A stretch of DNA of 64,000 nt from the IMG/VR virus record IMGVR_UViG_3300033388_006651, positions 64,001-128,000 of that record; one strand, 5' to 3'. The stretch comes from a virus. The position numbers and the translations under genes were made by a program. A model generated the notes under the pieces. It was not told the DNA's origin. It made no database searches and was given only the letters and a program-made list of their open reading frames with translations. Below are positions 1,983-19,923 of the stretch, piece by piece (the stretch's first letter is position 1; every line of letters begins with the position of its first letter).

Positions 1983-1992
1983 GATGTGTTCC

Positions 1993-2021: not shown

Positions 2022-2126
2022 GCACCTCATTCAATTTTTCCTGGGGATCACCGAACGCCTCCCCAGGTGCCCGAACATCATTGAGAAAAGCAACGGTTCC
2101 CAACACGGCTGCGTAAAAAGAAGGCC

Positions 2127-2927: not shown

Positions 2928-2936
2928 CGCAACCGG

Positions 2937-3308: not shown

Positions 3309-3311
3309 CTC

Positions 3312-3665: not shown

Positions 3666-3715
3666 ACCCCCTAGACGGATGGGCCTCAGAAAACTCCCCT
3701 CTTTCCTCAGATTTT

Positions 3716-4292: not shown

Positions 4293-4347
4293 GCAGGGCT
4301 TTCGGCCCCAGCCCGGTCCTGAGAAGCACTATGCAGCTCAAGCCGGG

Positions 4348-4563: not shown

Positions 4564-4596
4564 TCGTGAAAAGACTGCCCGACTATTACACTCGTG

Positions 4597-5604: not shown

Positions 5605-5638
5605 TCAAGGAGGTCCTCATAGGGGTAAAAATGATGAC

Positions 5639-6844
5639 ATGCTCGTCCTGTTCCCGTCTGACCCTTTTGAGACCTACAAGCCCGAGCCGGACTACGTCCA
5701 GGAGATCGAGATCGCAAAAGAGTGCGGCCACGAGGTTGCCTTCATCCATTGGGAAGCCCTGGTGAACGATGACGACGCTGCCGCGGCCATCAGGAAGGTT
5801 CCTGTTTTCGAGGATTCCACCCCTGCCATCTACCGGGGTTGGATGCTGACCTCCGAGCAGTACGAGAAGCTCTACGCAGAGCTCCAGATCCATGACGTTG
5901 ATCTGTTGACCACTCCCGACGCCTACCGTAAGGCCCATGAGTTCCCTGGGTGGTACTTGGAGATCCCGAAAGCGACTCCGGCGTCGGCGATCATCCAGAA
6001 GCATGAGATCAGCATGGAGAGGCTGCTCAGCAGGGCCAAGGAGATGCTCGAACAGTACGAGCACGGCATCATCATCAAGGACTACGTGAAAAGTCGGAAG
6101 CACGAGTGGGAGGAGGCGTGCTTCATCCCCGATATGTCCAAAGCTGAGGTGGTGATCGCCAACTTCCTCGAGCGCCAGGGTGACGCTCTCCAAGGCGGCG
6201 TTGTGCTCCGGGAGTTCGTGCCGCTCAAGTCGATCGGTAAGCACCCTGACTCGGGGATGCCAATGGGCGAGGAGTTCCGCATCTTCTGGATGAACGGTCG
6301 AGTGGCCGCCGCTGCGGAGTACTGGCCTTCCGAGTTCTACATCGGTGAGGAGCGTGAAGATGAGAACGCAGGTGACGGGAGCACGTACCGTGTGCCTCAT
6401 GCCCTGAGCACTCTCCCCGATCCACAGTCGCTTCTCGAACTCCTCGAAAACATCGACAACCCGTTCGTCTCGATGGACCTTGCGCGTGCCGAGGATGGTG
6501 AGTGGTTCGTCATGGAGATCGGCGACGGTCAGGTCTCTGGGCTCCCGCGCCCCAAGCTCGATGCCCGGCTCATTTACAGCCGGCTCGATCGGTTGCTCGG
6601 GCCTCCTGGGCTTGCCTCGGACGCGACACCGATGACCCAGGCACAGTTCGCCGGTATGACGTGCCACGCCGAAGGCTGCGACCACACCGGCCACGACACC
6701 GAGATGTACCTGCACCCCAAGTGCCACGTCGGTTCTCCGACCTGGGCGATTTACGAGGACGGCGTCATCAACGTGAAGTGTGCCGAGTGCAAGACGCTCG
6801 TGGTCAGAATCGCGGTTGACCCCGGTACGGTCGTCGAAGATTAG
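5639..6844 (+). CDS. ATP-grasp protein (R2K-like) with C-terminal Cys/His domain
   Basis: IYRGWML, IIKDYVKSRKHEW.EACFI, EFRIF, MDLA..EIGDGQVSG; start reassigned to ATG 5639. Confidence 0.75.
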   Translation: MLVLFPSDPFETYKPEPDYVQEIEIAKECGHEVAFIHWEALVNDDDAAAAIRKVPVFEDSTPAIYRGWMLTSEQYEKLYAELQIHDVDLLTTPDAYRKAHEFPGWYLEIPKATPASAIIQKHEISMERLLSRAKEMLEQYEHGIIIKDYVKSRKHEWEEACFIPDMSKAEVVIANFLERQGDALQGGVVLREFVPLKSIGKHPDSGMPMGEEFRIFWMNGRVAAAAEYWPSEFYIGEEREDENAGDGSTYRVPHALSTLPDPQSLLELLENIDNPFVSMDLARAEDGEWFVMEIGDGQVSGLPRPKLDARLIYSRLDRLLGPPGLASDATPMTQAQFAGMTCHAEGCDHTGHDTEMYLHPKCHVGSPTWAIYEDGVINVKCAECKTLVVRIAVDPGTVVED

Positions 6845-7050
6845 AGGGCGTGGTCTCGAATGGCCTTGGTCAGCCGGCGCACTTTATTGGTGAAAATAGA
6901 GTAGAACCGGGGGTCCACTTCGTGCAGGAGATGGAGGAGAGATTCGATCTCGGCCTCGGCATCTTCCTGGTCCACGATGTTCTTGGCGACGGCACGGGTG
7001 CAGTCGGGCTGAGAGGTGAGCCAGTGGTTGATGCGTTCTTCGTAAGTCAC
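6841..7050 (-). CDS. hypothetical protein
   Basis: 69-aa helical ORF. Confidence 0.5.
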   Translation of the reverse strand: MTYEERINHWLTSQPDCTRAVAKNIVDQEDAEAEIESLLHLLHEVDPRFYSIFTNKVRRLTKAIRDHAL

Positions 7051-7119
7051 GATCTAGGTGTATCGCAGGGTCTTGATCCGCCTCGGATCAAGCGCCGTCG
7101 AGAAAGTTGAAGAATTCGT

Positions 7120-7148
7120 TTGACTCGGCGTCTTAGTCCGCGTACACA
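7120..7148 (+). promoter_or_regulatory. sigma70-like promoter of the main tRNA operon
   Basis: TTGACT-N17-TACACA. Confidence 0.65.
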
Positions 7149-7195
7149 GAAATGGTCGCCGTCCCTTGGCAGGAACGCGACTCAAAGTCCCCGCC

Positions 7196-7288
7196 ATGAA
7201 ACACTCCACGACATACACAGCTACGACAACGACTACGGTCGTCGTGGCCGTCGTATTGCCCATTATGGGCGATATGACCTCGTGTTGA
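7196..7288 (+). promoter_or_regulatory. Thr/Val-rich leader peptide MKHSTTYTATTTTTVVVAVVLPIMGDMTSC*
   Basis: 9 Thr and 5 Val in 30 codons; followed by hairpin TTCCCGGCG/CGCCGGGAA. Confidence 0.75.
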
Positions 7289-7380
7289 GCATTTCCCGGC
7301 GTTGACCAAAACATCAAACGGCGCCGGGAACCCCCAAAGGGTTTGCTTCGCACGTTCAAAGGCCACGCTGGCTCCCATTC

Positions 7381-7456
7381 GCCGGTGTAGCTCAATTGGT
7401 AGAGCACTGGTTTTGTAAACCAGGGGTTGCGGGTTCGAGTCCCATTACCGGCTCCA
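7381..7456 (+). tRNA. tRNA-Thr(UGU)
   Basis: CTGGT TTTGTAA ACCAG; CCA end. Confidence 0.95.
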
Positions 7457-7487
7457 AGTATTTCTCTTCACCCAAGGAACAGACAAC

Positions 7488-7562
7488 GCCTTTGTAGCTC
7501 AGTGGTAGAGCAGCTCATTCGTAACGAGCAGGTCGTGGGTTCGATTCCCACCTTGGGCTCCA
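7488..7562 (+). tRNA. tRNA-Thr(CGU)
   Basis: TTCGTAA loop; CCA end. Confidence 0.92.
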
Positions 7563-7564
7563 AG

Positions 7565-7603
7565 CACCAACACCAACACCAACACCAACACCAACACCAT
7601 CAC
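7565..7603 (+). repeat. (CACCAA)n hexamer tandem repeat between tRNA-Thr genes
   Basis: caccaa x5 followed by caccatcac. Confidence 0.9.
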
Positions 7604-7611
7604 CGACATAA

Positions 7612-7686
7612 GCCCTTGTAGCTCAGTGGAAGAGCGCTTCCTTGGTAAGGAAGAAGTCACGAGTTCGATTCTCGTCTTGGGCTCCA
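7612..7686 (+). tRNA. tRNA-Thr(GGU)
   Basis: CTTCC TTGGTAA GGAAG; CCA end. Confidence 0.93.
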
Positions 7687-7837
7687 GGAACGCAGGACCC
7701 TCGTTCGAAGGTCACAAGCAAAAGGTAAAGACATCTGTTTTTCACACAGAAGACTGCGAGTTCGATTCTCGCCTTCCCCGCCATTTATGGGGAAGTGGTC
7801 ATAAGACGCACTCACCCCGCACACTCTCCTGCGTTCC
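7687..7837 (+). ncRNA. CACAAGC-module RNA carrying a circularly permuted tRNA-Glu(UUC)
   Basis: Outer stem GGAACGCAGGA/TCCTGCGTTCC; tRNA 3' part (7724-7783, ends GCCA) precedes the 5' part GGGGAAG-TG-GTC (7789-7804). Confidence 0.8.
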
Positions 7838-7854
7838 TTAATTTTCACCCTAAT

Positions 7855-7937
7855 CCCAGCGCCTCGTAGAGCGAGGCACACGACAGCAGCTTCGCTTCGA
7901 GGCGAAAATGGCAGGCGACCGGACGGCCTGTGGGATC
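7855..7937 (+). ncRNA. putative multibranch structured RNA
   Basis: ATCCCA/TGGGAT closing stem around three hairpins. Confidence 0.4.
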
Positions 7938-7998
7938 AAACAACCGATTTTTCTCAACCCCAACTTCAACCCCCAACGAACAGAAAGGACCGAGCACG

Positions 7999-8136
7999 AT
8001 GAACATCGAAAACGATGACTGCGATGATGTAGATGATACCTACGGAGCAGTGGCGCAGTTGGTAGCGCACTCGGTTGTCAGCCGAAAGGTCGCCGGTTCA
8101 AGTCCGGTCTGTTCCGCCAAGGGGGTGTTGGTCTAG
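7999..8136 (+). promoter_or_regulatory. Asp-rich leader ORF MNIENDDCDDVDDTY... reading through tRNA-Asp
   Basis: GAAAGGA RBS; 6 Asp in 8 codons directly before tRNA-Asp; stop inside the second tRNA-Asp. Confidence 0.75.
8044..8119 (+). tRNA. tRNA-Asp(GUC)
   Basis: TTGTCAG loop; GCCA end. Confidence 0.92.
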
Positions 8137-8198
8137 TTGGTTATGACGCTTCCCTGTCACGGAAGAAATCGCGGGTTCAAGTCCCGCACATCCCGCCA
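8122..8198 (+). tRNA. tRNA-Asp(GUC)
   Basis: CTTCC CTGTCAC GGAAG; GCCA end. Confidence 0.95.
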
Positions 8199-8204
8199 TT
8201 TTTT

Positions 8205-8279
8205 AGTCCTGTAGCTCAGTGGAAGAGCATTCCCGTCACATGGGAGAGGCCATCGGTTCGACCCCGATTGGGACTACCA
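8205..8279 (+). tRNA. tRNA-Val(CAC)
   Basis: TTCCC GTCACAT GGGAG; ACCA end. Confidence 0.88.
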
Positions 8280-8288
8280 AGAAAACAT

Positions 8289-8363
8289 AGCTCCGTAGCT
8301 CAGTGGCAGAGCAACACCTCGACATGGTGAAGGTCGTCGGTTCGATCCCGACTGGGGCTACCA
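8289..8363 (+). tRNA. tRNA-Val(GAC)
   Basis: ACACC TCGACAT GGTGA (C33); ACCA end. Confidence 0.88.
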
Positions 8364-8422
8364 ACACAACAAGTTACTAAGACACAAGGCCCTCCGTTCC
8401 ATTTTGTGCTACGCTCAGAAGA

Positions 8423-9097
8423 GTGAAGCCGGACAAACAAAAAGAGGCGCGTAGACTGCGTAAGCAGGGCCTTTCTTTGAGTGAGATCGTTACCAAAATT
8501 GGATGCGCAAAAAGTTCGGTTAGCCGCTGGACCCGGGATATCCCTCTCACTAAGACTCAAGTCAAAAACCTTCGACGAAAGGAAGATCAAGGACGACTTA
8601 AAGGCCGTATTGCAGCCGCTACCCATCCCAACTCTCCGAAACAGGTGTGGGCTAAAAAACGAGATGAAGCACGTCAAAAAGGGCACGAAGAGATTTCCCG
8701 GATCGATGACATCTCTCTCAAAATACTCATCGCGGCACTGTACTGGGGGGAAGGGTCAAAGGGTCGTAACAGTTTTTCCATAGCGAACACGGACCCTGCA
8801 ATGGTCCGCCTTATTGCCGCCTTTCTTCGAAAACATTGTCAAGTTCCTGAAGAGCGCCTTCGTTTTCGCGTCTACATTCATCCTCATTTGAGTCTCCGAA
8901 AAGCTCGTATTTACTGGGCTAAAATTGCAGGAACCTCCCCTAAAAATATCGCATCCACCACCGCTGTAAGCTCAGCTAGCCAAGGAAAGAAGGACTCGTG
9001 CCCTTACGGCACTTTTCAAATCACGTACTGTGACACCCTGTTTCGGTCTCGCATAGAAGGCTGGATGGATGCCTTGAAAGAACAGATACCGGGTTAG
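8423..9097 (+). CDS. HTH plus LAGLIDADG-like endonuclease inserted in the tRNA-Val cluster
   Basis: N-terminal HTH (GLSLSEI..KSSVSRW), ALYWGEG..F.IANTDP motif; more AT-rich codons; stop lies inside tRNA-Val(UAC). Confidence 0.7.
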   Translation: MKPDKQKEARRLRKQGLSLSEIVTKIGCAKSSVSRWTRDIPLTKTQVKNLRRKEDQGRLKGRIAAATHPNSPKQVWAKKRDEARQKGHEEISRIDDISLKILIAALYWGEGSKGRNSFSIANTDPAMVRLIAAFLRKHCQVPEERLRFRVYIHPHLSLRKARIYWAKIAGTSPKNIASTTAVSSASQGKKDSCPYGTFQITYCDTLFRSRIEGWMDALKEQIPG

Positions 9098-9161
9098 CTC
9101 AGTGGTAGAGCGCTGCCCTTACAAGACGGATGCAAGAGTTCAATTCTCTTACCCGGTACCA
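9088..9161 (+). tRNA. tRNA-Val(UAC)
   Basis: CTTACAA loop; ACCGGGT/ACCCGGT-ACCA. Confidence 0.9.
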
Positions 9162-9201
9162 GACCTCAAACCTCAACCTCTAACCACGAAAGGAACCGAC
9201 C

Positions 9202-9264
9202 ATGGAAAAAGAAGACAGCGACATTAGCGACATTATCTACTCGGCCCGTGGTCCAGTCTGGTAA
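9202..9264 (+). promoter_or_regulatory. Ile-containing leader ORF MEKEDSDISDIIYSARGPVW* reading into tRNA-Ile
   Basis: GAAAGGA RBS; ATT, ATT, ATC codons just before tRNA-Ile(GAU); stop in the D-loop. Confidence 0.65.
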
Positions 9265-9316
9265 TGGATGTCGCTCTGATAAGGCGAAGACGGAGGTTCA
9301 AATCCTCCCGGGCCGA
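9242..9316 (+). tRNA. tRNA-Ile(GAU)
   Basis: TCGCT CTGATAA GGCGA; CGGCCCG/CGGGCCG-A. Confidence 0.9.
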
Positions 9317-9326
9317 CCGACTACAT

Positions 9327-9403
9327 GGACGTGTAGCTCAGTTGGTTAGAGCGCAGCCCTGATAAGGCTGAAGTCGAAAGTTCAAATCTTTCTACGTCCA
9401 CCA
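9327..9403 (+). tRNA. tRNA-Ile(GAU)
   Basis: CAGCC CTGATAA GGCTG; ACCA end. Confidence 0.95.
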
Positions 9404-9424
9404 AGAGATTTCCAAAACACATAT

Positions 9425-9499
9425 AGCGGGATGGCGCAGTCAGGTAGCGCGCTGGGCTCATAACCCAGAGGTCGTCGGTTCAAATCCAACTCTCCGCTA
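9425..9499 (+). tRNA. tRNA-Met(CAU), initiator-like
   Basis: CTGGG CTCATAA CCCAG with three G-C pairs; small acceptor-stem irregularity. Confidence 0.88.
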
Positions 9500-9505
9500 C
9501 TAAGG

Positions 9506-9663
9506 GCAGTAGAAGTCTGCTTGCGAAATATCTCCCTTCACCGGGAAGAGACGCTAGCGAACAAAACTTCATCCTCGCAACGGAGTTGAGGGGAGAGCAG
9601 TAGGAGATCTGCTTGCGACAATAGGCCCCGTAACTGGGTATCGAAGATAGCGAACAAAACTCC
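9506..9663 (+). ncRNA. tandem pair of a structured RNA motif (GCAGTAG..TCTGCTTGCGA-hairpin-TAGCGAACAAAACT)
   Basis: Two copies, 9506-9570 and 9597-9663, with conserved flanks and different central hairpins. Confidence 0.65.
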
Positions 9664-9672
9664 AACACTTGA

Positions 9673-9750
9673 CGCGGGTTGGGGAAGTCCGGCCATCCCG
9701 GTGGGCTCATAATCCACAGACCCTCGGTTCAAATCCGAGACCCGCTACCA
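9673..9750 (+). tRNA. tRNA-fMet(CAU)
   Basis: C1-U72 mismatch, CTCATAA loop, ACCA end. Confidence 0.92.
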
Positions 9751-9809
9751 AATCCAGTTCGACAGTGTGCGCCCGTGCGAGCCGAACCGAGTGTAGAAAC
9801 GGGCCTCAT

Positions 9810-9887
9810 GCCAGAATAGCTCAGTTGGTTAAGAGCGCTCCCCTCATAAGGGAGAGGTCATCGGTTCAAATCCGATTTCTGGTACCA
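9810..9887 (+). tRNA. tRNA-Met(CAU), elongator or Ile2 type
   Basis: CTCCC CTCATAA GGGAG; ACCA end. Confidence 0.9.
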
Positions 9888-10245: not shown

Positions 10246-12114
10246 ATGGACAACAAAGAAACACTCGGACCCGCAGAGACCATCATCCAGTCACTGCTGG
10301 CCTACTCAGATCACATCTACCACGGCCGCCCCGGCGTCGTGGTGCCCGACGCGCGATCCACGACCGGAGTGCGATGGGACCCCGTCACCCACAAGGTCGG
10401 AGAGGACGGCGTCAAGACCGTTCTTCGCCTCACGCGAAACGGCAAGAAGACCATTCGTACCGAGATCGGCACGATGAACGGCGACAATCGTGTGAAGAAC
10501 GCGGGTGCCGATGTCGGCCTGTACCGCAAGAGCGGCCTCTTCCCAGAGGTTGCCCTGTGGTTCTACAAGCAGATCGCTGAGGTGTGGACGCTCGACAACG
10601 AATTCGCTGCTCGGTGGGCGTCGTACGCCTTCCGTCAGGAGCACCGTGACCTCAAGGTCATGCTCGCTGCGTTCATGCTCGTTCAGTCGCGTAAGGGCGA
10701 CCCCGTCATGGACGGGGGTGAGCGTCTGTTCGACGACGAGGACTACCGTGACGTGGGCGAGGCCATGGTCCTTCTCCTTGAGAAGGGCAACGACCTCAAC
10801 CCGAAGCTCCTGCTTCGGATCTACGATGTCCTGAACCTGCCCGAGATCGCAAAGATCAACCACGAGCTCGGCTTCGGCAAGTCCGCCAAGCGTCCGTTCC
10901 TCGGTCGTTGGCCCAAGGCGATCGACAAGTACCTTCGGTACCGCGAGGAGAACCCGAAGCTGCTCGAAGGGCTCGTCAACAAGGCTGCTTTCGGCAACAC
11001 CGTCAAGACTCTGGCTCGGCGTATCGGCTACAAGCCAACGTCCGACAAGTTCTTCGCTACCCTACGCTGGAAGCAGAAGCAGGCTGAAGACGGGCGTCGT
11101 GAGATGGCCATCGGTAAAGCCGTGAGGGCTGCTGAGTCGTGGGATCACCTCGACGAAGCCGGTGTTTGCGAGCTCATCGAGAAGAACAAGCCTGGCTGGA
11201 AGCGGATCGTGGGTCTCCTTCCTGCGAAGATCGGGGTCACCCGTGCGGTGATGGCTGCGACCATCGAGTCGGGCGGTCTCTCGGACAAGGATCTCATCAT
11301 CCTCACTCCAACGATCGAGGATCTTGGTCTGTTCAAGGTCCAGGAGATCAAGGCGCGTCATGCTGCGGCTCTCGCCAAGGCAAGCGACATGCGTGCGGCT
11401 AACATCGCCCGCAACGTTCGGTCCAAGGATCTCAAGGAGGAGATGGAGACCGGTGCCGACAAGGCAGCTCAGAAGGCTGCTGAGGAGGTCATCAAGAACC
11501 TGCGCCTCTACGTCGTCATCGACCGTTCGGCGTCGATGCAGGGAGCACTGGAGAAGGCGAAGCCACTGATCGCCAAGCTCATTCAGGCAATCCCAGCCGA
11601 GCGTCTGCACGTTTCGACGTTCAACACGATCGGTAAGGTGATCACCTTCAAGCACCACTCGACCGCTGGGGTCGAGGCAGCTTTCCGGGGCGTCAACGCC
11701 GGAGGGGGCACGGTGCACGCAGAAGGTGTTCGGGTTCTGGCTCAGTTCCCGCCTGCGGCAGACGAGGACTCCCTGATGATCTTCATCGGGGACGAGGGCG
11801 AGCGTCGGCACTTTGCCGAAGCTGTGGAGGCATCTGGTCTCCGTCCCCTGGCCTTCGGGCTCCTCGCCACGGTGGGTCCTCGTTGGGGTCGCGGTCAGGC
11901 GATTCGGGACACGGCTGCTCGACTGGACATCCCGTGCTTCGAGATCGATGACCGCACCTTTGATGGCGACCCGTACGCCATCCCGCGTACGATCAGGAAC
12001 CTGATCGCGGCTACCCCTGTGGGGGTGAACACCGGTCGTCGCGTCGTCCCGCGCGTGACGCTGGTGGGTCAGATCCTGGAGACCGAGATTCTCCAGAAGC
12101 CCAACTGGGCATAG
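10246..12114 (+). CDS. Ro60/TROVE-like protein with C-terminal vWA domain
   Basis: Long basic helical N-terminal region plus VIDRSASM MIDAS, GGGT, FIGDEG; the Ro60 relationship is inferred from architecture and ncRNA context; start reassigned to 10246. Confidence 0.6.
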   Translation: MDNKETLGPAETIIQSLLAYSDHIYHGRPGVVVPDARSTTGVRWDPVTHKVGEDGVKTVLRLTRNGKKTIRTEIGTMNGDNRVKNAGADVGLYRKSGLFPEVALWFYKQIAEVWTLDNEFAARWASYAFRQEHRDLKVMLAAFMLVQSRKGDPVMDGGERLFDDEDYRDVGEAMVLLLEKGNDLNPKLLLRIYDVLNLPEIAKINHELGFGKSAKRPFLGRWPKAIDKYLRYREENPKLLEGLVNKAAFGNTVKTLARRIGYKPTSDKFFATLRWKQKQAEDGRREMAIGKAVRAAESWDHLDEAGVCELIEKNKPGWKRIVGLLPAKIGVTRAVMAATIESGGLSDKDLIILTPTIEDLGLFKVQEIKARHAAALAKASDMRAANIARNVRSKDLKEEMETGADKAAQKAAEEVIKNLRLYVVIDRSASMQGALEKAKPLIAKLIQAIPAERLHVSTFNTIGKVITFKHHSTAGVEAAFRGVNAGGGTVHAEGVRVLAQFPPAADEDSLMIFIGDEGERRHFAEAVEASGLRPLAFGLLATVGPRWGRGQAIRDTAARLDIPCFEIDDRTFDGDPYAIPRTIRNLIAATPVGVNTGRRVVPRVTLVGQILETEILQKPNWA

Positions 12115-12125
12115 GAGTAAACCTC

Positions 12126-13058
12126 ATGGGATGGAGAGACCTAATCACAACCAAGGAGGAGACCACCACTCTTCCGTGGACCGGAGGACGGTCTCTCCAC
12201 TCCGGGTCCCGAACCTTCAAGCTCGGGGCCCGGCCTCGGGACTTTGGCTGGTACACCTTCGACCTCGAAGGCAACAAGGCCAAGGACCCGAAGCCCGCTG
12301 ACCCAGTTCCTGAGATTCTCAAGAGCTCCGTCAAGGGCTATCTGGTCGGGGACCGTCTGGTCCCCGATGACACCCGGATCGATCCCGACCCGGCCAAGAT
12401 CATCAACTACTCGGAGAAGGTCTACCTCCTTCCCGAAGAACTCGACCGGTTCTCGCGTGTGCGAGCCGGCCGCATTTACCCCGAGGGGCCTCTCATTTTT
12501 CTTGAGCAGGAATTCCCCCTCGGCCCCGAGGACGAAGTCATGGAAGCATTCTTCGACAACAAGATCAGCACCTTCGGTATCCGAAGCGTCGCGCCCGCAC
12601 TCGATGCGGCTTTCCGTATGGAGGTCTACCAGCGTCAGCAGGCAGAGTTCCGTCGGCAAGAACTGATCCGGCTTCGTGCCGAGGAGGAGGCACGTCTTGC
12701 CAAGGAGGAGCGCCGCAAGGAGATGATCGAGAAGCTCGGGGATGGCGCTGGCCGTCGTGCGATGGCCCAGGAAAACTTCGGTGAAGCCGCTCGGGCTGCC
12801 CTCATGGTCGGTGGTGCTCAGTACCTCGACCACCGAAAGGGAGGGCGTAAAGGTGAATGGGTCGTCAAGTATCGCGTCGATGGGCAACGCCTTGAGTGCG
12901 TGTGCGACACCAACCTCCAGATCATCGACGCAGGCGTTTGCCTTGTCGATCACGGAACCAACGAAAAGGGCGACACCTACTTCACCCTCGAATCACTGCC
13001 TGCGGTCATCCGTCAGGCCATCCGCGAGCACAAGCTCGTCGTATGGAGACACATCTAA
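12126..13058 (+). CDS. hypothetical protein of the vWA-JAB-Ubl-E1 operon
   Basis: AGGAG RBS; coiled-coil middle; ECVCD..DAGVCL C-terminal region. Confidence 0.75.
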   Translation: MGWRDLITTKEETTTLPWTGGRSLHSGSRTFKLGARPRDFGWYTFDLEGNKAKDPKPADPVPEILKSSVKGYLVGDRLVPDDTRIDPDPAKIINYSEKVYLLPEELDRFSRVRAGRIYPEGPLIFLEQEFPLGPEDEVMEAFFDNKISTFGIRSVAPALDAAFRMEVYQRQQAEFRRQELIRLRAEEEARLAKEERRKEMIEKLGDGAGRRAMAQENFGEAARAALMVGGAQYLDHRKGGRKGEWVVKYRVDGQRLECVCDTNLQIIDAGVCLVDHGTNEKGDTYFTLESLPAVIRQAIREHKLVVWRHI

Positions 13059-13633
13059 TGGAATTCAAAGACATCAACATCAAGGCCGTCGGCACCGAGG
13101 TTCTCCTCGTGGGCGGCGTCTGGGCTGGCCAGGGTCAGACCTTCGTGTGCCTGTATCCGCAAGAGGAGCAGGAAGGGGACGTTCACGTCCTCGACATGAC
13201 CCGCGAGGATTGGGCCGCACTGCTTCGGCAGTCGGACCTGATGGAGACGGAAGTTCTGGCGAAGGCCGAGGACGGAAAACTCTACAAGGCCATCGCTCGC
13301 AAGAGCCAACGCAACATCGACCAGGGCACTTCCTGGAACGTGTTCCGACGGGACGGGTACGCCTGCCGCTACTGCGGCAACGACAAGATCCCCCTTACCG
13401 TGGACCACCTCGTGCTCTGGGAAGAGGGCGGTCCTTCTCTCGAGGAGAACCTCCTGTCCGCTTGTCGCAAGTGCAACAAGGTGCGTGGCAACACGCAGTA
13501 CGCGGACTGGCTCAAGCACCCCTTCTACCTGGGGAAGTCCAAGAACCTGACGCCCGAGGTCCGAGCCGCCAATGAGGCGATCCTCGGGACTCTCGACGCC
13601 ATCCCACGGCACACCAAGAAGAGGAAGCGATAG
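13058..13633 (+). CDS. HNH endonuclease
   Basis: VFRRDGYACRYCG...TVDHL...GG....NLLSAC.KCN; start at ATG 13058. Confidence 0.85.
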   Translation: MEFKDINIKAVGTEVLLVGGVWAGQGQTFVCLYPQEEQEGDVHVLDMTREDWAALLRQSDLMETEVLAKAEDGKLYKAIARKSQRNIDQGTSWNVFRRDGYACRYCGNDKIPLTVDHLVLWEEGGPSLEENLLSACRKCNKVRGNTQYADWLKHPFYLGKSKNLTPEVRAANEAILGTLDAIPRHTKKRKR

Positions 13634-13635
13634 TC

Positions 13636-14007
13636 ATGATCGAAACAGGTCTAGTCGTAACTGACGCTGGTCCCGTCTACTGGCACCTGCCGCGAGGCAG
13701 GACCGGTGGCAGCCTTCCCGACAGCCGCTCGCTGTGGGACGTGCTGTGGGAACTCCGTAGGGAACCGTTCCTGGGAGTCGCCCACAGCCATCCGGGCTCG
13801 GGAATTCCCGGGCCGTCCATGACGGACATCACTACCTTCTCCGGGGTCGAGCTCGGGCTTGGCCGTCGGCTCACCTGGTGGATCACCAGCTCATCACACA
13901 TGATCGGCCTGAACTACGCAGGACCGACCAAGTACAACTACAACTCTTTCCCCGTGAAGGAGCCCTACTGGGCTGCGCAACTGCGGGAGTTCTCGAAAGG
14001 ACAATGA
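13636..14007 (+). CDS. JAB/MPN+ metalloprotease
   Basis: N-terminal E (ETG) and HSHPGSGIPGPSMTD JAMM motif. Confidence 0.85.
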   Translation: MIETGLVVTDAGPVYWHLPRGRTGGSLPDSRSLWDVLWELRREPFLGVAHSHPGSGIPGPSMTDITTFSGVELGLGRRLTWWITSSSHMIGLNYAGPTKYNYNSFPVKEPYWAAQLREFSKGQ

Positions 14008-14267
14008 ACATGGAAAACAACGAAGCACGCGTCAACATCACCTACGGGGGGAACAACGGGGATCTCCCTGACCCCGTCCTGTTCGACTCCACTGATGGCG
14101 ACATCAAGGGGTGGATCACGGAAGCTGTCGCAGGGGGTTCCGTCCCCGGTATCCCGGCGGACGGCAACGTGGATTTCACGGATTTCGTCGTGGATCGCTT
14201 CTCGGCTAACGCTGAGCGCGACTACAATTTAATTCAGATAAGACCTAAAACTCCATTCGGGTGTTGA
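14004..14267 (+). CDS. ubiquitin-like (beta-grasp) protein
   Basis: About 87 aa with a beta-beta-alpha-beta-beta pattern ending IRPKTPFG-C, between JAB and E1. Confidence 0.65.
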   Translation: MNMENNEARVNITYGGNNGDLPDPVLFDSTDGDIKGWITEAVAGGSVPGIPADGNVDFTDFVVDRFSANAERDYNLIQIRPKTPFGC

Positions 14268-14280
14268 CCGAAGACACCGT

Positions 14281-15243
14281 TTGGTCTACGATCAAACGGT
14301 GCCAGAAGATCTCGACCTGGATGCTCTCGTGAGCCGGTACGAGGAGGGGGCGAGTGCCGCTTCTCTCGGCCGGGATTTCGGGGTCAGCACCTGGACGGTT
14401 CTGAACCGTCTCAGGGGTGCTGGGATCCGTATTCGTTCCAACAAGGAGCAGAACGAGAAACGGCTCGATCTGGATGAGGTGCAACAGCGGCGTCTCGTTG
14501 AGATCGTAGACGGGCTCCTCCTTGGAGATGGGTCCATTGATCCCAAAGGGAGTTTGCGCATCGAACAGACTCAGGACCATTTGGGTTGGTTCGATTCGAT
14601 CCAACAAGCCCTTGGGAGTGTCGGGGCGGTTTCGCGACGCACCCCTGTCGCACCTCGCGTCCGTTTCATTAAGGATCATGAGGCGCACGGCAAAGGAGGC
14701 GCCGTCTTTTACACGCCCTGCTACGTTGAGCTCCAAGAGCAGCGGCAGCGGTGGTATCCGAAAGGAAAGAAGCGCGTCCCCGAGGATGTGCTCCTCACGC
14801 CTCTAAGCATTGCCTACTGGTTCTGTGGGGATGGTTCCTATGACAAGCCGGGATCGCTCGTGTTCTACACCAACTCTTTTTTCAAGAAGGAGACAGAGCG
14901 TTTGGCTCGGGGCCTTACCAAGCTCGGTGTTCGGGCCCGGTGTCGTCCTGTGGGACAACACCGATACCGCGAATGGAAAATCCACATCCTTCGGCGTGAC
15001 GATGCCCTGCGGCTTCGTGAACTGATGGGGGATCATGTGCCGGAGTGTTTCCAGTACAAGTTCGTATACGTCCGAGCGGCCATTCCACCAGGTTCTACGA
15101 CCGCTAAGCTGACTTTCACGCAGGCCCAGGAAATCCGGGAGCGTACAAAGAACGGGGAAACCCAGACGGCGCTGGCCAAGGAATTCGGGGTCTCCCAAAC
15201 CGCGATCCGCCAGATCGTTCGCGGGAAAGTCCACAAGCCATGA
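14281..15243 (+). CDS. free-standing LAGLIDADG homing endonuclease with HTH domains
   Basis: GLLLGDGS and AYWFCGDGS motifs; WYPKGKK.VP. Confidence 0.85.
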   Translation: MVYDQTVPEDLDLDALVSRYEEGASAASLGRDFGVSTWTVLNRLRGAGIRIRSNKEQNEKRLDLDEVQQRRLVEIVDGLLLGDGSIDPKGSLRIEQTQDHLGWFDSIQQALGSVGAVSRRTPVAPRVRFIKDHEAHGKGGAVFYTPCYVELQEQRQRWYPKGKKRVPEDVLLTPLSIAYWFCGDGSYDKPGSLVFYTNSFFKKETERLARGLTKLGVRARCRPVGQHRYREWKIHILRRDDALRLRELMGDHVPECFQYKFVYVRAAIPPGSTTAKLTFTQAQEIRERTKNGETQTALAKEFGVSQTAIRQIVRGKVHKP

Positions 15244-15464
15244 AACCCAAACACGAGAAAACTCTTGAGGTAGCAAAGCGCTGCCTGGAGTACCCGGAGA
15301 CAGAGCTGAGCCGTTTGGAGATCAAGAACCTCTTACTCTGTTACAGAGATGCAATAGAGAGCCGCTACGAGACTTGGGAGATCGCTGAGGCTTGGGACAC
15401 GGATAGTCCGATGGGCACGTTGAGGCGGTTGGGACAGAACCGAGAAAAGGAAATGGGAACGTGA
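15240..15464 (+). CDS. hypothetical protein
   Basis: ATGA-coupled 74-aa ORF. Confidence 0.5.
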   Translation: MKPKHEKTLEVAKRCLEYPETELSRLEIKNLLLCYRDAIESRYETWEIAEAWDTDSPMGTLRRLGQNREKEMGT

Positions 15465-15729
15465 AAATTACGATCATGAAAATTACGATCATCGATTGCA
15501 GGGACACTCGTGTGTCTAAGGAGCAGAACTCGTGATCGGGAAATACATTCTGGCCGGCAATACCTCCCACCTGTGGGGGTGCGAAATACATGTCTGCTCT
15601 CTTTGTGGGCAACATCAAGACTCGGCCGAAGAAACATGTCCTGAAGGGCGCCGCATGATGGGTTTTCGAATTTCGACTGGGGATGCCAAAAGCATCAAGG
15701 AGATACCAACATGAAAATTACGATCATCG
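15461..15729 (+). repeat. direct repeats of the ThiF gene start (TGAAAATTACGATCA) x3
   Basis: Copies at 15462, 15477 and 15712. Confidence 0.85.
15532..15714 (+). CDS. small Cys-rich hypothetical protein
   Basis: HVCSLCG...TCP; coupled to the ThiF start. Confidence 0.45.
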   Translation: MIGKYILAGNTSHLWGCEIHVCSLCGQHQDSAEETCPEGRRMMGFRISTGDAKSIKEIPT

Positions 15730-16280
15730 GAGTCGGAGCACTGGGCTCACACCTCGTGCAAGCTCTTCGGAACGAGAAGGTGACCCTCAAGGTCATCGAC
15801 TTCGACCGCGTCGAGATGAAGAACGTCGCTTCTCAGTTTCACTTCAAGAACGGAGTGGGCAAAAAGAAGGTCGATGCTCTCAAGCAGGCGATGCAATTCT
15901 GCTACGGCCGGAAGATCGAGATCGTGGGCAACAAGCTCACGGCGGACAACGTTGACCAGCTCCTGGGCGACGCTGACCTGCTCGTGGACTGCCTGGACAA
16001 CGGAGAAGCCCGGACGCTCGTCCAGGGCTTCGCTCGAGCCAATGGGGTGCCGTGCGTGCACGGAGCTCTTGCGGCCGATGGTGGCTTCGGTAGGGCCGTA
16101 TGGACTTCCGGTTTTGTTATTGACAGCGAGACATTGGGTGCGGCAACATGTGAAGACGGTGCCTTCCTCCCGTTCATCCAGCTCGTTGCCACACGCCTCG
16201 CGTACGTCGTCCAGCGATTCCTCCAAACTGGGGAGAAGCACAACTTCAACATCTTCCCCGGCGGCGTCACTAAATTCTAG
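15711..16280 (+). CDS. ThiF/MoeB/E1-like adenylyltransferase
   Basis: IIGVGALG, IDFDRVEMKN..SQ, GKKKV, VDCLDN..AR; candidate catalytic Cys in ATCED. Confidence 0.9.
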   Translation: MKITIIGVGALGSHLVQALRNEKVTLKVIDFDRVEMKNVASQFHFKNGVGKKKVDALKQAMQFCYGRKIEIVGNKLTADNVDQLLGDADLLVDCLDNGEARTLVQGFARANGVPCVHGALAADGGFGRAVWTSGFVIDSETLGAATCEDGAFLPFIQLVATRLAYVVQRFLQTGEKHNFNIFPGGVTKF

Positions 16281-16284: not shown

Positions 16285-17265
16285 GTGTGTCGAGGGACCC
16301 GGCGCACTGCTCACCTCGACATTGACGCGCTCGTGCGGGGTTACGAAACCGGCGACAGTGCCCAGACGCTGGCGAAGAAATTCAACACTGGACGTTCCAC
16401 CGTACTCACCCGGTTACGGGAAGCCGGGGTGCGAATTCGGCGTCCTTCTGAATGGGAAGAGAAACATCTGGTTCTCCTCCCCCAACACGAGGAACCTTTC
16501 ATCGAGCTCCTTGATGGCCTCATGCTCGGAGACGGCACTCTCCCTCGTGACGGGGGGCTTCGCATTGAACAGAGCCATGTGCGTCACGGGTGGTTGAAAG
16601 ACATCCAACAGGAGCTGCGGGGTTTTGGGGTGAAGAGTACGATGGACGAAGTTATACGGCCCGAAAGGGCCCGCAAAGACGGACGAATCCTTTCGGCCTA
16701 TAGGGGGTTTCTTTTGCGCACTCCTGCTTACGTTGAACTTCGCTCACAACGACAGCGATGGTATCCAGGTGATGTAAAACGCATTCCTGACGATGTGCGT
16801 ATCACCAAAAAATCTGTTGCGGCCTGGGTAAGTGGGGACGGCACAGGAGGTAAGAAGGGCACGCTGGTTCTTTGCACCGATGATTTCACCGAAGAAGGAG
16901 TCGGTCTGCTGATTGACCGACTCAAAGAGGTTTTTAATGTTAAGGCTCGACGCGTTTCAGGTGAACGACCTCGAGTCGGCCTTTACCGGAAAAATGATGT
17001 GCTCCGACTTCGTGAGGTCCTTCTCCCACACATGTCGAAATGCTGTCGGTACAAGTTCCAACACGCCCGTGGCGCCCAAAGGAAAGGGAAACTCCCCGAG
17101 GCGTCCGTGCAGGCTATTCGTGGAAAGTACGACGAGGGGGTCACGTTGAGCGTGATCGCAAAGGAGCATGGGCTGAGTCGGTCAGCCGTCAACAACATTG
17201 GTCTGCGGAAAGTGTACAAGTGGGTGGCTGAGACGGCCGTTCCAGCCACCGTCGAAGAAAGTTGA
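16285..17265 (+). CDS. free-standing LAGLIDADG homing endonuclease, paralogue of 14281
   Basis: GLMLGDGT, AAWVSGDG, YVELRSQRQRWYP shared with the paralogue; start uncertain. Confidence 0.85.
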   Translation: MCRGTRRTAHLDIDALVRGYETGDSAQTLAKKFNTGRSTVLTRLREAGVRIRRPSEWEEKHLVLLPQHEEPFIELLDGLMLGDGTLPRDGGLRIEQSHVRHGWLKDIQQELRGFGVKSTMDEVIRPERARKDGRILSAYRGFLLRTPAYVELRSQRQRWYPGDVKRIPDDVRITKKSVAAWVSGDGTGGKKGTLVLCTDDFTEEGVGLLIDRLKEVFNVKARRVSGERPRVGLYRKNDVLRLREVLLPHMSKCCRYKFQHARGAQRKGKLPEASVQAIRGKYDEGVTLSVIAKEHGLSRSAVNNIGLRKVYKWVAETAVPATVEES

Positions 17266-17275: not shown

Positions 17276-17304
17276 TTGACTTCCCTCAGCCCCCGATCCA
17301 ATCT
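17276..17304 (+). promoter_or_regulatory. sigma70-like promoter of the ncRNA array
   Basis: TTGACT-N17-CAATCT. Confidence 0.55.
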
Positions 17305-17317
17305 GTTCGTCCAGGCT

Positions 17318-17401
17318 GTTTCCCACGCGCAGGTCTCACAAGCACAACCCCGGTCCGAAGTGACCGGGACACTGAAGCCTCCCAGACCGCGCCCTCGAAA
17401 C
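17318..17401 (+). ncRNA. CACAAGC-module RNA with a simple hairpin payload
   Basis: GTTTC/GAAAC P1, GGTCT/AGACC P2, CACAAGCA. Confidence 0.6.
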
Positions 17402-17414
17402 TACCTACAACTAA

Positions 17415-17547
17415 GCCGGATATGACCCGTGGTGGGTCACCAACCTTCCAAGTTGGCTAACAATCCGACACCTGCACTCACCCCTTCACAGGGGTACTCG
17501 GCAAAATGTCTACAAGCATCTGCCTGGTTCGACTCCAGGATCCGGCT
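17415..17547 (+). tRNA. tRNA-Gly(UCC) with a ~60-nt module insertion in the variable loop
   Basis: GCCGGAT/ATCCGGC-U, CCAAC CTTCCAA GTTGG, CCTGG TTCGACT CCAGG. Confidence 0.75.
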
Positions 17548-17552
17548 CTAAA

Positions 17553-17678
17553 GAAGCAACCACTGCCCGTAAGGCTCACAAGCAAAGTAGCTCAGTGTAG
17601 AGCGTCTGTCCTGAAAACAGAAGGTCGCGGTTTCATCACCGTCCTTGCAACAAACCAGCTTTTCCACTCGGTCGCTTC
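17553..17678 (+). ncRNA. CACAAGC-module RNA with a degenerate tRNA-like payload (CCTGAAA loop)
   Basis: GAAGCAACC/GGTCGCTTC P1, GGCT/AGCT P2, TAGCTCAG..AGAGC D arm. Confidence 0.72.
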
Positions 17679-17716
17679 TTAACTTTTTCACTCAGCAGCA
17701 GTACACAACATAACAT

Positions 17717-17848
17717 GGAGGACATGACCCCGATGGGGGGTCGCCCGACGGTAAATCGGTAAAACCGACACCACCACTCGCTTCTTCACGGAAGCACTCG
17801 GCGAATGTCTACAAGCAACTCTTGGTTCGAATCCAGGGTCCTCCACCA
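17717..17848 (+). tRNA. tRNA-Tyr(GUA)-like with a ~60-nt module insertion in the variable loop
   Basis: GGAGGAC/GTCCTCC-ACCA, CGGTAAA loop (G33), GGTTCGAATCC. Confidence 0.72.
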
Positions 17849-17978
17849 GAAGCAACCACCACGCCTAGACTCACAAGCGAAAGTAGCTCACTCGGTAGAG
17901 CGCGTCCCTGATAAGGATGAGGAGCTGGTTCGATCCCGGCCCTTTGCAACAAAACAGTCTTTCGACTCGGTCGCTTCT
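17848..17978 (+). ncRNA. CACAAGC-module RNA with a tRNA-Ile(GAU)-like payload
   Basis: Same P1 as 17553, AGACT/AGTCT P2, CGTCC CTGATAA GGATG. Confidence 0.75.
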
Positions 17979-17986
17979 AACTTTTC

Positions 17987-18134
17987 GATCAACGCACCAG
18001 ATCAATCTCACAAGCAAATTGTTGGTTCGATTCCAACCTTCCCCACCTATGGGGAAGTGGGCAAATGGTAAAGCCACCGGTATATTAAACCGGCGTTTCA
18101 AAACGCAACTCCAGGTTTTTCACTCGCGTTGATC
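17987..18134 (+). ncRNA. CACAAGC-module RNA with a circularly permuted tRNA-like payload
   Basis: GATCAACGC/GCGTTGATC P1; order is T arm, CTTCCCC-loop-GGGGAAG, D arm, anticodon arm. Confidence 0.78.
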
Positions 18135-18146
18135 AACTAACCCCGT

Positions 18147-18190
18147 CCCCGGGCGCTGCTCCTCAAAGAGCCGCCCGGGGATTTCTTTTT
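18147..18190 (+). terminator. intrinsic terminator closing the ncRNA array
   Basis: CCCCGGGCG...CGCCCGGGG followed by ATTTCTTTTT. Confidence 0.75.
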
Positions 18191-18199: not shown

Positions 18200-18574
18200 T
18201 CATTCGTCCCGGAAGACGAGGCCCTTCGCGTAGACGTGGGCGGTCCCGAATTTCACGAACATGCGCACCAGGTCGGCTCGGACCACAGGGCGCTCGCCGT
18301 GGGCCGTGACGAAGCTGTCGTGCTCTCCAACCTCGTAGATCACGCGCACCCAGTCGCCATCGATCTCGAGATCTTGGAACAGGACCTCACCACGGATGCC
18401 CGCATGGACATTCCGACGACCTTTCTCGAGCATCCGCGCCCGCTCCTTCTGATCTATCTCAAACTCGGCATCCTGGAGGGTGAGACTCATTTTGTGGCGG
18501 CTCACCCGTCCCGTCAGGCGGCACCGCACGGTGAACCGTTTGTCATGCAGGTTCCAATAGACAAACTCTTTCAC
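18200..18574 (-). CDS. phage hypothetical protein, paralogue of 2937-3308
   Basis: VYWNLH...RRNVHAGIRG...GERPVV.AD. Confidence 0.7.
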   Translation of the reverse strand: MKEFVYWNLHDKRFTVRCRLTGRVSRHKMSLTLQDAEFEIDQKERARMLEKGRRNVHAGIRGEVLFQDLEIDGDWVRVIYEVGEHDSFVTAHGERPVVRADLVRMFVKFGTAHVYAKGLVFRDE

Positions 18575-18610
18575 GATCTCTCCTATTTAGGGGTTCGGTA
18601 TAGTCTCAAA

Positions 18611-19294
18611 ATGAAGACGATTCTGCGCGACCGGAACGAAGAGTTGGTTGAAGCCTGGAAGGGCTGGTTCAAGGATGAGCCAGTGCTCCCCGATAGCGAG
18701 ATCGTCATCGAGCAGGGTGACATCTTCGATGGGCCCGGCGACTGCATTGTGAGCCCGGCCAACAGCTTTGGCATCATGAACGGCGGCATCGATCAGGCGT
18801 ACACAGATCGTTTCGGCATCATCGTACAGGAGCGTATCCAGAAGATCCTCCGTGACAAGTATTGGGGCGAGCTCCCCGTTGGCTGTGCCGTCATCGTGCC
18901 CACCGACGACCCCGAGTTCCCTTGGTGTGCCAGTGCTCCGACCATGCGTGTGCCCGAATCCGTCAGCAACACGCTCAATGCCTACCACGCGTTTCGAGCA
19001 GTCCGGTTGGCGGTCGAGCGTCACAACAAGGACCCGCGTGCCGCCGAGCACCCGAACTGGACCATCAAAAGCATTTTGTGTCCCGGTCTCGGAACCGCCA
19101 CCGGCAAACTCGACTACGACCTGTGTGCTCGTCAAATGCTGTGTGCCTACCGGGCGCCGGACTGGCCCGGTGACTGCTCCGAGAATTTCACGACGCCCTG
19201 GGCGATGGGACGGTTCATGCGGGGAGAGGCCGACATGGCCGGGGTCTCAACGATTCACCAGACGCCCCAGTTTAAGGTCATTCAGGCGGATTAG
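18611..19294 (+). CDS. macro domain (ADP-ribose processing) protein
   Basis: GDIF..IVSPANSFGIMNGGID, APTMRVP, PGLGT.TG; start at ATG 18611. Confidence 0.88.
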   Translation: MKTILRDRNEELVEAWKGWFKDEPVLPDSEIVIEQGDIFDGPGDCIVSPANSFGIMNGGIDQAYTDRFGIIVQERIQKILRDKYWGELPVGCAVIVPTDDPEFPWCASAPTMRVPESVSNTLNAYHAFRAVRLAVERHNKDPRAAEHPNWTIKSILCPGLGTATGKLDYDLCARQMLCAYRAPDWPGDCSENFTTPWAMGRFMRGEADMAGVSTIHQTPQFKVIQAD

Positions 19295-19350: not shown

Positions 19351-19923
19351 ATGGCCGCCCAATTCGACAAGCTGCTGGTGCTGGACTTGGATGAGACTCT
19401 CATCCACACCACCGGTTTTGGGTTCCCTGGAGACCCTCCGGAGAACACCGCGGACTTTTTCGTGGACGACGGATTCTTCGCCGTCCACAAGCGCCCCGGA
19501 GTGGGGGCGTTCCTGGCCTGGTGCCTGGAGAATTTCCGAGGGGTGGGCGTCTGGACTGCGGGGACTCGGGGCTATGCTCTGGAGATCCTCCCGCACCTGT
19601 GCGACCCCAACGATTTCATGTTCGTCTGGGGCCGAGAGCGTTGTGGGTCCCGGCGCGACATGGAGGCCCAGGAGACGCACTGGGTGAAGGACATCGCCAA
19701 GCTACACAACCTCGGCTTCTCCAAATCCCAAATTTTGTGTGTGGATGACATCCCGCAGAATTTCGCGCGTAGCTATGGGAACTATATCCAAGTGCGGCCG
19801 TTCCAGGGGGACCGCTCCGACAACGAGCTTGAGTACCTGCGTCGCTACCTCGAGACACTCGGCTCGGTGCCCAACGTGCGTACCATCGAGAAGCGAGGAT
19901 GGCGCCCTACGAGTCCGGCATGA
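19351..19923 (+). CDS. HAD phosphatase of the FCP1/NIF family
   Basis: LVLDLDETLIH, KRPG..FL, WTAG...YA, KD, VDD. Confidence 0.9.
   Translation: MAAQFDKLLVLDLDETLIHTTGFGFPGDPPENTADFFVDDGFFAVHKRPGVGAFLAWCLENFRGVGVWTAGTRGYALEILPHLCDPNDFMFVWGRERCGSRRDMEAQETHWVKDIAKLHNLGFSKSQILCVDDIPQNFARSYGNYIQVRPFQGDRSDNELEYLRRYLETLGSVPNVRTIEKRGWRPTSPA

Follow-up and report, generated by a model that had tools for sequence, protein, structure and literature searches.

Here, we describe a five-gene cassette carried on a 64,000-nucleotide stretch of viral DNA (hereafter the window), which covers bases 64001–128000 of the 146.8-kb IMG/VR virus record IMGVR_UViG_3300033388_006651. CheckV puts the completeness of this record at 28%, so the parent genome is probably several hundred kilobases long; the G+C content of the window is ~0.59. 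The core cassette runs from a protein with a von Willebrand factor A (vWA) domain, through a 310-residue protein without a family (p310), a JAMM metalloprotease and a small Gly-ended protein presumed to be a ubiquitin-like (Ubl) precursor, to a minimal E1-like adenylating enzyme (Table 1). An initial annotation, made from the sequence alone, had listed six open reading frames (ORFs) at this locus, namely vWA, 310-residue, HNH, JAMM, Ubl and ThiF; all six are present on the + strand, and two LAGLIDADG genes and a 74-residue ORF had been overlooked.

Table 1. Cassette genes, inserted genes and RNA arrays of the locus, in window coordinates (residue ranges refer to the protein; aa, amino acids)
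Feature	Position	Strand	Basis or remarks
vWA protein, 622 aa	10246–12114	+	Pfam VWA_2; start fixed by alignment with relatives
vWA protein, domains	N-terminal beta ~30–94; helical repeats ~100–416; vWA 417–590		C-terminal LLxKPxWA peptide conserved
p310, 310 aa, family-less	12126–13058	+	AlphaFold2 model, conservation
p310, parts	beta barrels 12–57 and 66–128 (OB-like); 49-residue E/R/K-rich helix 157–205; C-terminal alpha/beta 207–307
JAMM/MPN+ metalloprotease, 123 aa	13636–14007	+	Complete E..HxH..S..D motif
Small Gly-ended protein, presumed Ubl precursor, 87 aa	14004–14267	+	Ends RPKTPFG86-C
E1-like adenylating enzyme, 189 aa, MoeB/ThiF type	15711–16280	+	Pfam ThiF 3.8e-24
HNH endonuclease, mobile, between p310 and JAMM, non-core	13058–13633	+	Pfam HNH 1.3e-9
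LAGLIDADG homing endonuclease with helix-turn-helix domains (HE1), just after the Ubl stop	14281–15243	+	Pfam LAGLIDADG_2 1.2e-21
74-aa ORF, no family (Pfam, NCBIfam, PHROG)	15240–15464	+	No relative in the 12 first-compared loci
Second LAGLIDADG (HE2), after E1	~16285–17265, start codon uncertain	+	Pfam LAGLIDADG_2 3.2e-17
Upstream tRNA array: Thr x3, Asp x2, Val x3, Ile x2, Met x3	7381–9887	+	ARAGORN; Rfam 52–73 bits
tRNA-like RNA array, ~300-nt repeats	17276–18190	+	Repeat families D1–D6, Rfam

Comparison among relatives indicates that the five genes form one unit. Scans of IMG/VR that took the E1 or the small protein as query yielded 17 first relatives on contigs of 41–619 kb, and tblastn found the five genes in identical order and strand in every complete locus, at 40–77% identity. 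Scans with a p310 alignment returned 60 viral loci and 35 loci on contigs of metagenome-assembled genomes (MAGs), the latter mostly Myxococcota bins. Order and strand are preserved in about 95 loci at 38–86% identity (a single locus has the JAMM gene after that of the small protein), and the clustering is therefore far beyond chance; all-against-all clustering of the flanking ORFs revealed no further widely conserved neighbour beside the five genes. The cassette genes are translationally coupled, since the JAMM stop and the small-protein start overlap (ATGA) in the window and the p310 stop overlaps the JAMM start in relatives without the HNH gene.

Some of the MAG loci sit in plainly Myxococcota chromosome. 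On a 1.03-Mb contig the neighbours are CHAT-TPR, DsbA and radical SAM genes, and further scanned loci adjoin a peptidase M49, a sulfatase or a nitrilase-family (CN hydrolase) gene; because these neighbours are ordinary bacterial ones, the cassette is common to Myxococcota chromosomes as well as giant phages. On a p310 tree, the copies from phages and from MAGs are intermingled. The earlier description of a phage-borne operon embedded in RNA arrays thus fits the window but is too narrow for the family, which is also found in chromosomal settings of Myxococcota that have no tRNA genes close by. With the vWA protein as query, tblastn retrieved a single GenBank entry, Virus Rctr197k (KX853510), whose cassette is spread over ~9 kb and annotated merely as "ThiF-like" and hypothetical proteins, and megablast of the region against GenBank phages gave no match. 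The libraries and papers searched held no description of a cassette joining Ubl/E1/JAMM, vWA and p310: papers were found on Ubl/E1/JAB systems, on vWA conflict systems and on phage Ro60, none joining all three, and the vWA protein, p310 and the small protein are unrepresented in PADLOC, PHROGs and NCBIfam. Separately, on a 544-kb Polyangiaceae MAG contig (L028, 4555–5940), a cassette that lacks JAMM has EF-Tu immediately upstream of its vWA gene and a Ser/Thr kinase-TPR gene downstream.

The HNH and LAGLIDADG genes are mobile intruders: the HNH gene occurs in 13 of the ~95 loci and relatives of the LAGLIDADG genes near the cassette in only 4, at differing places. Both LAGLIDADG genes are absent from the 12 first-compared loci; HE2 is 40% identical to HE1. 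In the window, HE1 and the 74-residue ORF, which probably belongs to the HE1 insertion, separate the Ubl gene from that of the E1, and HE2 follows the E1. Rfam gave no group I intron match around the LAGLIDADG genes, and the Ubl-E1 spacer has no alignment with relatives.

The best-supported activity in the cassette is maturation of the small protein. Its G86 is at least 97% conserved (80 sequences), and what follows the invariant ...PKTPFG motif ranges from nothing to ~90 variable, unrelated residues. Such a tail is present in 64 of 73 distinct loci that bear the JAMM gene, whereas in all 11 JAMM-less loci the protein ends exactly at the Gly (Fisher 9e-9); the combination of no JAMM with a tail occurs in zero loci. 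On a quick p310 tree, loci without JAMM fall in scattered positions; strongly supported branches force at least three changes and parsimony suggests ~7. Since the protein ends at the Gly in 11/11 JAMM-less loci that reflect at least three separate losses, there is strong comparative evidence that cleavage after Gly86 by the JAMM protein matures the small protein, which bears out the initial annotation in its suggestion that a JAB protease trims the residue beyond the Gly. Evolution has in effect already run this test: loss of the protease is confined to loci whose tag requires no trimming, which makes this opening reaction more secure than is usual for an uncultured system. Nine loci retain the JAMM gene without a tail on the small protein, so the protease may have a second role in deconjugation. 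The putative active-site residues E3, H50, H52, S61 and D64 are at least 97% conserved (62 sequences), and family matches are weak (Prok-JAB, E 1e-3; PADLOC JAB, E 0.007; PHROG tail-JAB, E 1.6e-3). In four loci (L073, L092, L098 and L091), the tails after FG are 14–50 residues long and contain Cys pairs (CxxC/CxC), e.g., ...QCCHTCGRPY and ...CICSRCGNAH, and JAMM cleavage would there free a small zinc-ribbon-like peptide.

The best solved relative of the E1 is E. coli MoeB (1jw9, 4.6e-15, residues 3–173), followed by Uba4, ThiF, TcdA, SAE2, UBA5 and Cap2. Its Cys147 aligns to MoeB C187, which we take to be the position of ThiF Cys184, and this residue is at least 97% conserved (75 sequences), as are the G-loop, D30, K53 and the DCxDN motif (D93, D96, N97). 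The sequence contains neither the Zn-binding CxxC motifs of MoeB nor a rhodanese domain, and matches to the NCBIfam models ThiF, UbaA, MoeB and MoeZ all fall far under their cut-offs; it is therefore no equivalog of any named enzyme. The idea that the short ThiF reflects a gene split by HE2 was rejected: relatives without a downstream homing endonuclease are likewise 189–199 residues long, and the gene is thus whole. A TcdA-type tRNA dehydratase was also rejected, as TcdA models score far below ThiF/MoeB and a Gly-ended partner is present.

At the other end of the cassette, the identity of the C-terminal vWA domain is certain. It scores Z 14.8 against vWA/I-domains, and its metal-ion-dependent adhesion site (MIDAS) residues D426, S428, S430, T489 and D516 are at least 97% conserved (77 sequences); the MIDAS, E1 and JAMM sites are all, as their conservation shows, under selection. 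The AlphaFold2 (AF2) model of the whole protein (predicted local distance difference test, pLDDT, 75.6; predicted TM-score 0.46) places ~17 helices in residues 100–416 and a C-terminal peptide that is disordered yet conserved. The top 11 Foldseek matches of this model are Ro60, Rsr or TROVE structures (E 1e-7 to 5e-6 over ~545 columns, with TM-scores of only 0.2–0.3), including 2nvo, 9nfa, 9kop, 1yvp and 9l5y and among them the Ro60 of Thermus phage phiLo, and these Ro60/Rsr structures outrank vWA-only chains; by Z, no Ro60 chain is in the top 50. Pfam TROVE (PF05731) has no match at E<=10 in the record, whereas control genomes do match. We compared the family by hhalign with 12 genuine TROVE proteins, taken from the phylum of one cassette-bearing MAG. 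The full-length profile gave E 3.9e-6, driven by the vWA domain, in a collinear alignment that extends ~200 residues upstream of that domain; residues 1–415 gave E 0.06, where shuffled controls reach 0.08. As these sequence tests fall short of significance, we refer to the protein, on the strength of its predicted fold, as Ro60-shaped and not as a demonstrated TROVE member; the Ro60-like character that had been proposed finds support in the predicted shape and none in the sequence. Two MAGs (G005:C47, locus L115; G009:C16, locus L116) carry, besides the cassette, a separate genuine TROVE protein elsewhere, of 535 and 554 residues, and the cassette vWA protein is therefore not simply the host Rsr. 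Many N-terminal residues of the vWA protein (window 10246–10750, residues 23–172) are at least 97% conserved, including H23, H26, R28, D117, W124, S126, D135, K137, D164, D166, R168 and E172, several of them in the stretch 149–168 that AF2 models poorly. This N-terminal part could be a binding or catalytic site beyond mere scaffold.

The second gene encodes p310, which has no Pfam, NCBIfam, PHROG or PADLOC family. It belongs to a large family of its own, for which 532 cluster representatives were retrieved at E<=1e-3, almost all of them ~300 residues in length. Across 129 members that are 31–66% identical to the window protein G270 and C272 are 100% and C258 is 94% conserved; the G270-x-C272-L motif is followed by a conserved D..FTLESLP segment. 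In the AF2 model (pLDDT 84.8), residues 64–132 resemble oligonucleotide/oligosaccharide-binding (OB) folds at Z ~6 (S1/CSD/IF1, RNase II/R and proteasomal ATPase N-domains), and fold searches (Foldseek against the PDB, VIA-align wide and BFVD) found nothing beyond this generic OB fold. Double-stranded-RNA-binding-domain-like rows for the C-terminal domain were weak, not significant, and were set aside; in the ESM Atlas, this domain finds only its own family, without models. Helices, four strands, the G-x-C-L motif (C272 after strand 4), a loop and further helices succeed one another in the predicted domain, an order compatible with a stripped ubiquitin-conjugating (UBC)-like layout, which we put forward as a hypothesis given that no E2 structure is among the matches. 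The cryptic E2 that had been anticipated in this gene thus found no UBC-like fold match, though one Cys is invariant.

Several functions that might accompany Ubl activation were looked for in the record and in four relatives that are 92–100% complete (437–619 kb). UQ_con, Prok-E2_A and Prok-E2_B have no match at E<=1 in the record or the four relatives (Prok-E2_C, D and E were not searched), in agreement with the absence of a recognisable E2 noted at the outset, nor was Prok-E2_B detected among 301 genomes of the phylum. The four relatives contain no rhodanese, and a full PP-loop ATPase occurs in one of them, far from the cassette, and in no cassette. No CD-NTase or effector gene is conserved at the cassette loci. 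Four of the five cassette proteins have no firm PADLOC defence-system match (the JAB match being marginal, E 0.007), and the PADLOC E1-E2 models align to the cassette E1 only through the E1/adenylation part.

The cassette also has a recurrent RNA context. ARAGORN predicts 20 tRNA genes in the window, 17 of them at 348–9887, and Rfam confirms them. Co-oriented tRNA genes flank the cassette in each of the first 12 relatives and in Rctr197k, and in most of these the cassette is embedded in an array. Among 72 distinct loci (~1 Mb), 52 have tRNA genes within 3 kb of the cassette, and 550 of 555 tRNA genes share the strand of the cassette; for IMG/VR phage loci, this co-oriented association is close to universal. 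Downstream, the array at 17276–18190 comprises two Rfam tRNA matches (17581–17650 and 17877–17948), three extra T-arm-like elements and shared modules, and pieces of it recur just after the E1 in the three closest relatives (L004, L006 and L011). It ends in a strong hairpin (18145–18190; dG -29.4 kcal/mol, z -5.15) followed by the U-run UUUCUUUUU, which a consensus scan had missed and which is likely an intrinsic terminator closing the array. What had been described as tRNA-like RNA arrays therefore proves to be mostly bona fide tRNA genes in the flanks, with irregular tRNA-like repeats only in this downstream array. Rfam gave no Y RNA match at E<=0.1.

Other RNA genes were seen beside the cassette in individual relatives. 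A 202-kb phage contig (L017) carries a tmRNA gene at 11594–11951, with the tag ANDDVEQLVPQLAAA, ~1 kb downstream of the E1. ARAGORN also predicts tRNA-like genes whose anticodon loops are irregular, the "anticodons" being of 4 or 2 nt, at 2281–2358 in L011, 10887–10959 in L015 and 3549–3620 in L017.

Together, the content of the cassette and its usual location in tRNA arrays point to protein tagging tied to RNA handling. The reading we favour, to which we give about an even chance, is a self-contained cassette that activates and covalently transfers a ubiquitin-like tag, coupled to a Ro60-shaped vWA protein, without a canonical E2. The 87-residue precursor first loses whatever follows ...PKTPFG to the JAMM protease, exposing Gly86, as the comparative covariation shows. 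The MoeB-like E1, judging by its conserved residues, would adenylate Gly86 and probably load it on Cys147. The tag would then pass directly to targets, in the style of SAMP/UbaA and TtuB/TtuC, or travel via p310 Cys272, in which case the OB barrel and long spacer helix of p310 would set its Cys domain beside a bound partner. The Ro60-shaped vWA protein, with its intact MIDAS, may serve as platform, receptor or substrate and, because the cassette lies in tRNA operons and beside tRNA-like repeats, is in phages probably positioned on tRNA-like RNAs; the JAMM protease may also undo conjugation. The cassette most likely serves to control or survey the tRNA/RNA machinery in the course of infection, and the Myxococcota chromosomal copies suggest a role in phage-host conflict. 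The RNP-guided action and the deployment under translation stress put forward in the initial annotation are conjecture.

Several findings weigh against this reading. The small protein gives no sequence signal of a beta-grasp fold, having no similarity to Pfam (13 members), PDB-profile or ThiS/MoaD-profile entries: against 29 ThiS/MoaD sequences hhalign gave E 0.21, no better than shuffles, and the ESM Atlas holds only its own family, without models. p310 has no UBC/E2-like match among PDB representatives or in BFVD, its C-terminal domain not having been searched alone, and its invariant Cys could be structural. TROVE homology of the vWA protein is insignificant by sequence, and its Ro60 fold matches have low TM-scores. 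The RNA link is not obligatory, as 19 of the 72 distinct loci, mostly on bacterial-MAG contigs and several shown to be chromosomal, have no nearby tRNA.

Known systems resemble the cassette in part. The archaeal SAMP/UbaA/HvJAMM1 and Thermus TtuB/TtuC/JAMM systems perform E2-independent Ubl conjugation and also carry sulfur. With these systems (PMC4443979, PMC3980101) the cassette shares a small Gly-ended protein, a MoeB-type E1 with a crossover-loop Cys, a JAMM protease, the lack of E2 and E3 and a link to tRNA biology. Its tag, however, ends in FG with a cleavable tail instead of GG and has no ThiS/MoaD profile similarity; its E1 is shorter (189 residues), without Zn motifs or rhodanese; and it adds two obligatory partners, the Ro60-shaped vWA protein and p310, and is phage-carried. 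Ro60/Rsr proteins, which work with Y RNA (Chen 2014, PMC4201824) and include the phage Ro60 of Thermus phage phiLo (PMC12135203, PDB 9l5y), consist of helical repeats followed by a vWA domain with a MIDAS, a layout also predicted for the cassette protein; they are the best structural matches of the cassette protein, and tRNA-like RNAs adjoin its gene. The cassette protein differs in having no TROVE sequence signal, an extra N-terminal beta domain, a conserved C-terminal peptide and a length of 622 residues against roughly 500–540 in solved Ro60 chains, and Ro60/Rsr has never been reported alongside a Ubl/E1/JAMM set. There is also a weak echo (Z ~5) of proteasomal ubiquitin handling, in which the vWA domain would correspond to Rpn10, the JAMM protein to Rpn11 and the p310 OB and helix to Rpt/Mpa N-domains. 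Lambda-type tail assembly was considered as well and set aside: the JAB of TAPI/TAPK lies in a tail module, fused to NlpC/P60, whereas the cassette JAMM is a free-standing 123-residue protein in a tRNA region with merely the weak PHROG tail-JAB match (E 1.6e-3).

Of the alternatives to E2-less tagging, the one that fares best, and that we still rate as doubtful, makes the small protein a sulfur carrier. The E1 would adenylate it, a persulfide from the host or on p310 Cys272 would convert it to a thiocarboxylate, the sulfur would go to tRNA or a small molecule, and the JAMM protease would only mature the carrier, as QbsD does QbsE and Mec+ does CysO. QbsE/QbsD and CysO/Mec+ are JAB-matured sulfur carriers, and a JAMM protease trims the carrier in these sulfur pathways. 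As in the systems treated by Iyer 2006 (PMC1779556), the JAMM protein strips residues beyond the terminal Gly, and the "G-C" end in the window mimics the CysO-Cys adduct. The kinship of the E1 to ThiF/MoeB/Uba4/UbaA and MoeZ-type enzymes, the absence of an E2, the location among tRNA genes and the combination of an invariant Cys with an OB fold in p310 would all fit such a relay. Yet the cassette has no sulfur-transfer or biosynthetic genes, the near-complete relatives have no rhodanese, and the full PP-loop ATPase is confined to one of the four relatives, far off. Moreover, no profile similarity links the small protein to ThiS/MoaD, its terminal motif is a single FG, not GG, and the only conserved partners are p310 and a vWA protein, which in its Ro60-like form has no role in known sulfur relays.

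It seems to us unlikely that the cassette is chiefly a conflict system, i.e., a bacterial defence that phages borrowed for counter-defence or superinfection exclusion, with the vWA protein sensing an invader molecule and conjugation of the tag switching on or neutralising a target as in Bil, Bub and CBASS Cap2/Cap3; the tRNA site in phages would then be an insertion hot spot without functional link. Those bacterial ubiquitin-like defence operons (PMC10557695, PMC11601596) similarly combine Ubl, E1 and JAB in one operon in a phage-host conflict setting, and the adenylation part of the cassette E1 matches the E1 part of the PADLOC E1-E2 models. The cassette is also a mobile, self-contained block with variable neighbours, its copies from phages and from MAGs mix on the p310 tree, its Myxococcota chromosomal contexts include CHAT-TPR, Ser/Thr kinase-TPR and similar genes, and vWA proteins and Ubl systems are known together in conflict systems (PMC7159879). 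It differs, however, in having no E2 domain, CD-NTase or effector gene and in its partner proteins; PADLOC gives no firm match for four of the five proteins and matches the E1 on the adenylation domain only; and an insertion hot spot explains less well the near-universal co-oriented association with phage tRNAs. This alternative addresses purpose, not chemistry, and is compatible with the tagging reading.

A bolder version of E2-less tagging, equally improbable in our view, would make p310 a new thioester carrier or ligase, composed of an OB module, a rigid spacer helix and a non-UBC Cys domain, in an RNA-guided ubiquitin-like tagging system: p310 would take the tag from the E1 and attach it to proteins, or even to the ends of RNAs, that the Ro60-shaped ring holds on tRNA-like RNAs, a system that giant phages and myxobacteria would both use. 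A complex prediction for E1, small protein (1–86) and p310 scored 0.00 against a mark of 0.32 and is evidence neither way. That the genes have no joint function, being merely syntenic, with a small ORF that is no tag, would suit the want of fold or family evidence for the small protein and p310, but we consider it very improbable given that order and strand are kept in ~95 loci at 38–86% identity while other neighbours change, that JAMM presence covaries with the tail through at least three independent losses, and that start and stop codons overlap.

The cassette varies the Ubl/E1/JAMM theme, to which the vWA protein and p310 are added as obligatory partners not described before. Bacterial and phage ubiquitin-like systems are a recent major theme in antiviral defence, and Ro60 with Y RNA forms a conserved RNA-surveillance particle; we know of no ligand for the Ro60 vWA/MIDAS domain. 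The cassette ties ubiquitin-like systems to a Ro60-type vWA protein in about a hundred loci and adds the large p310 family, which has no known relatives and in which one cysteine is invariant. It thereby provides a tractable case of tagging without an E2 (or with a new one), a possible partner of the Ro60-type vWA domain and a lead on the investment of giant phages in tRNA operons.

Further genes surround the cassette in the window. R2K-clade ATP-grasp proteins are predicted to attach amino acids or peptides to proteins, and a 544-residue ORF of this clade (5210–6844; Pfam R2K_3, 1.1e-32) lies just upstream of the tRNA array. Downstream of the cassette are genes for a Macro-domain protein (18236–19294), a NIF/FCP1-like phosphatase (19351–19923), a relative of which is also found near the cassette in L006, an endonuclease V-like protein (22220–22735) and a metallo-beta-lactamase-fold protein (23322–24167), perhaps RNase Z-like. 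The presence of these genes nearby suggests an RNA-processing neighbourhood.

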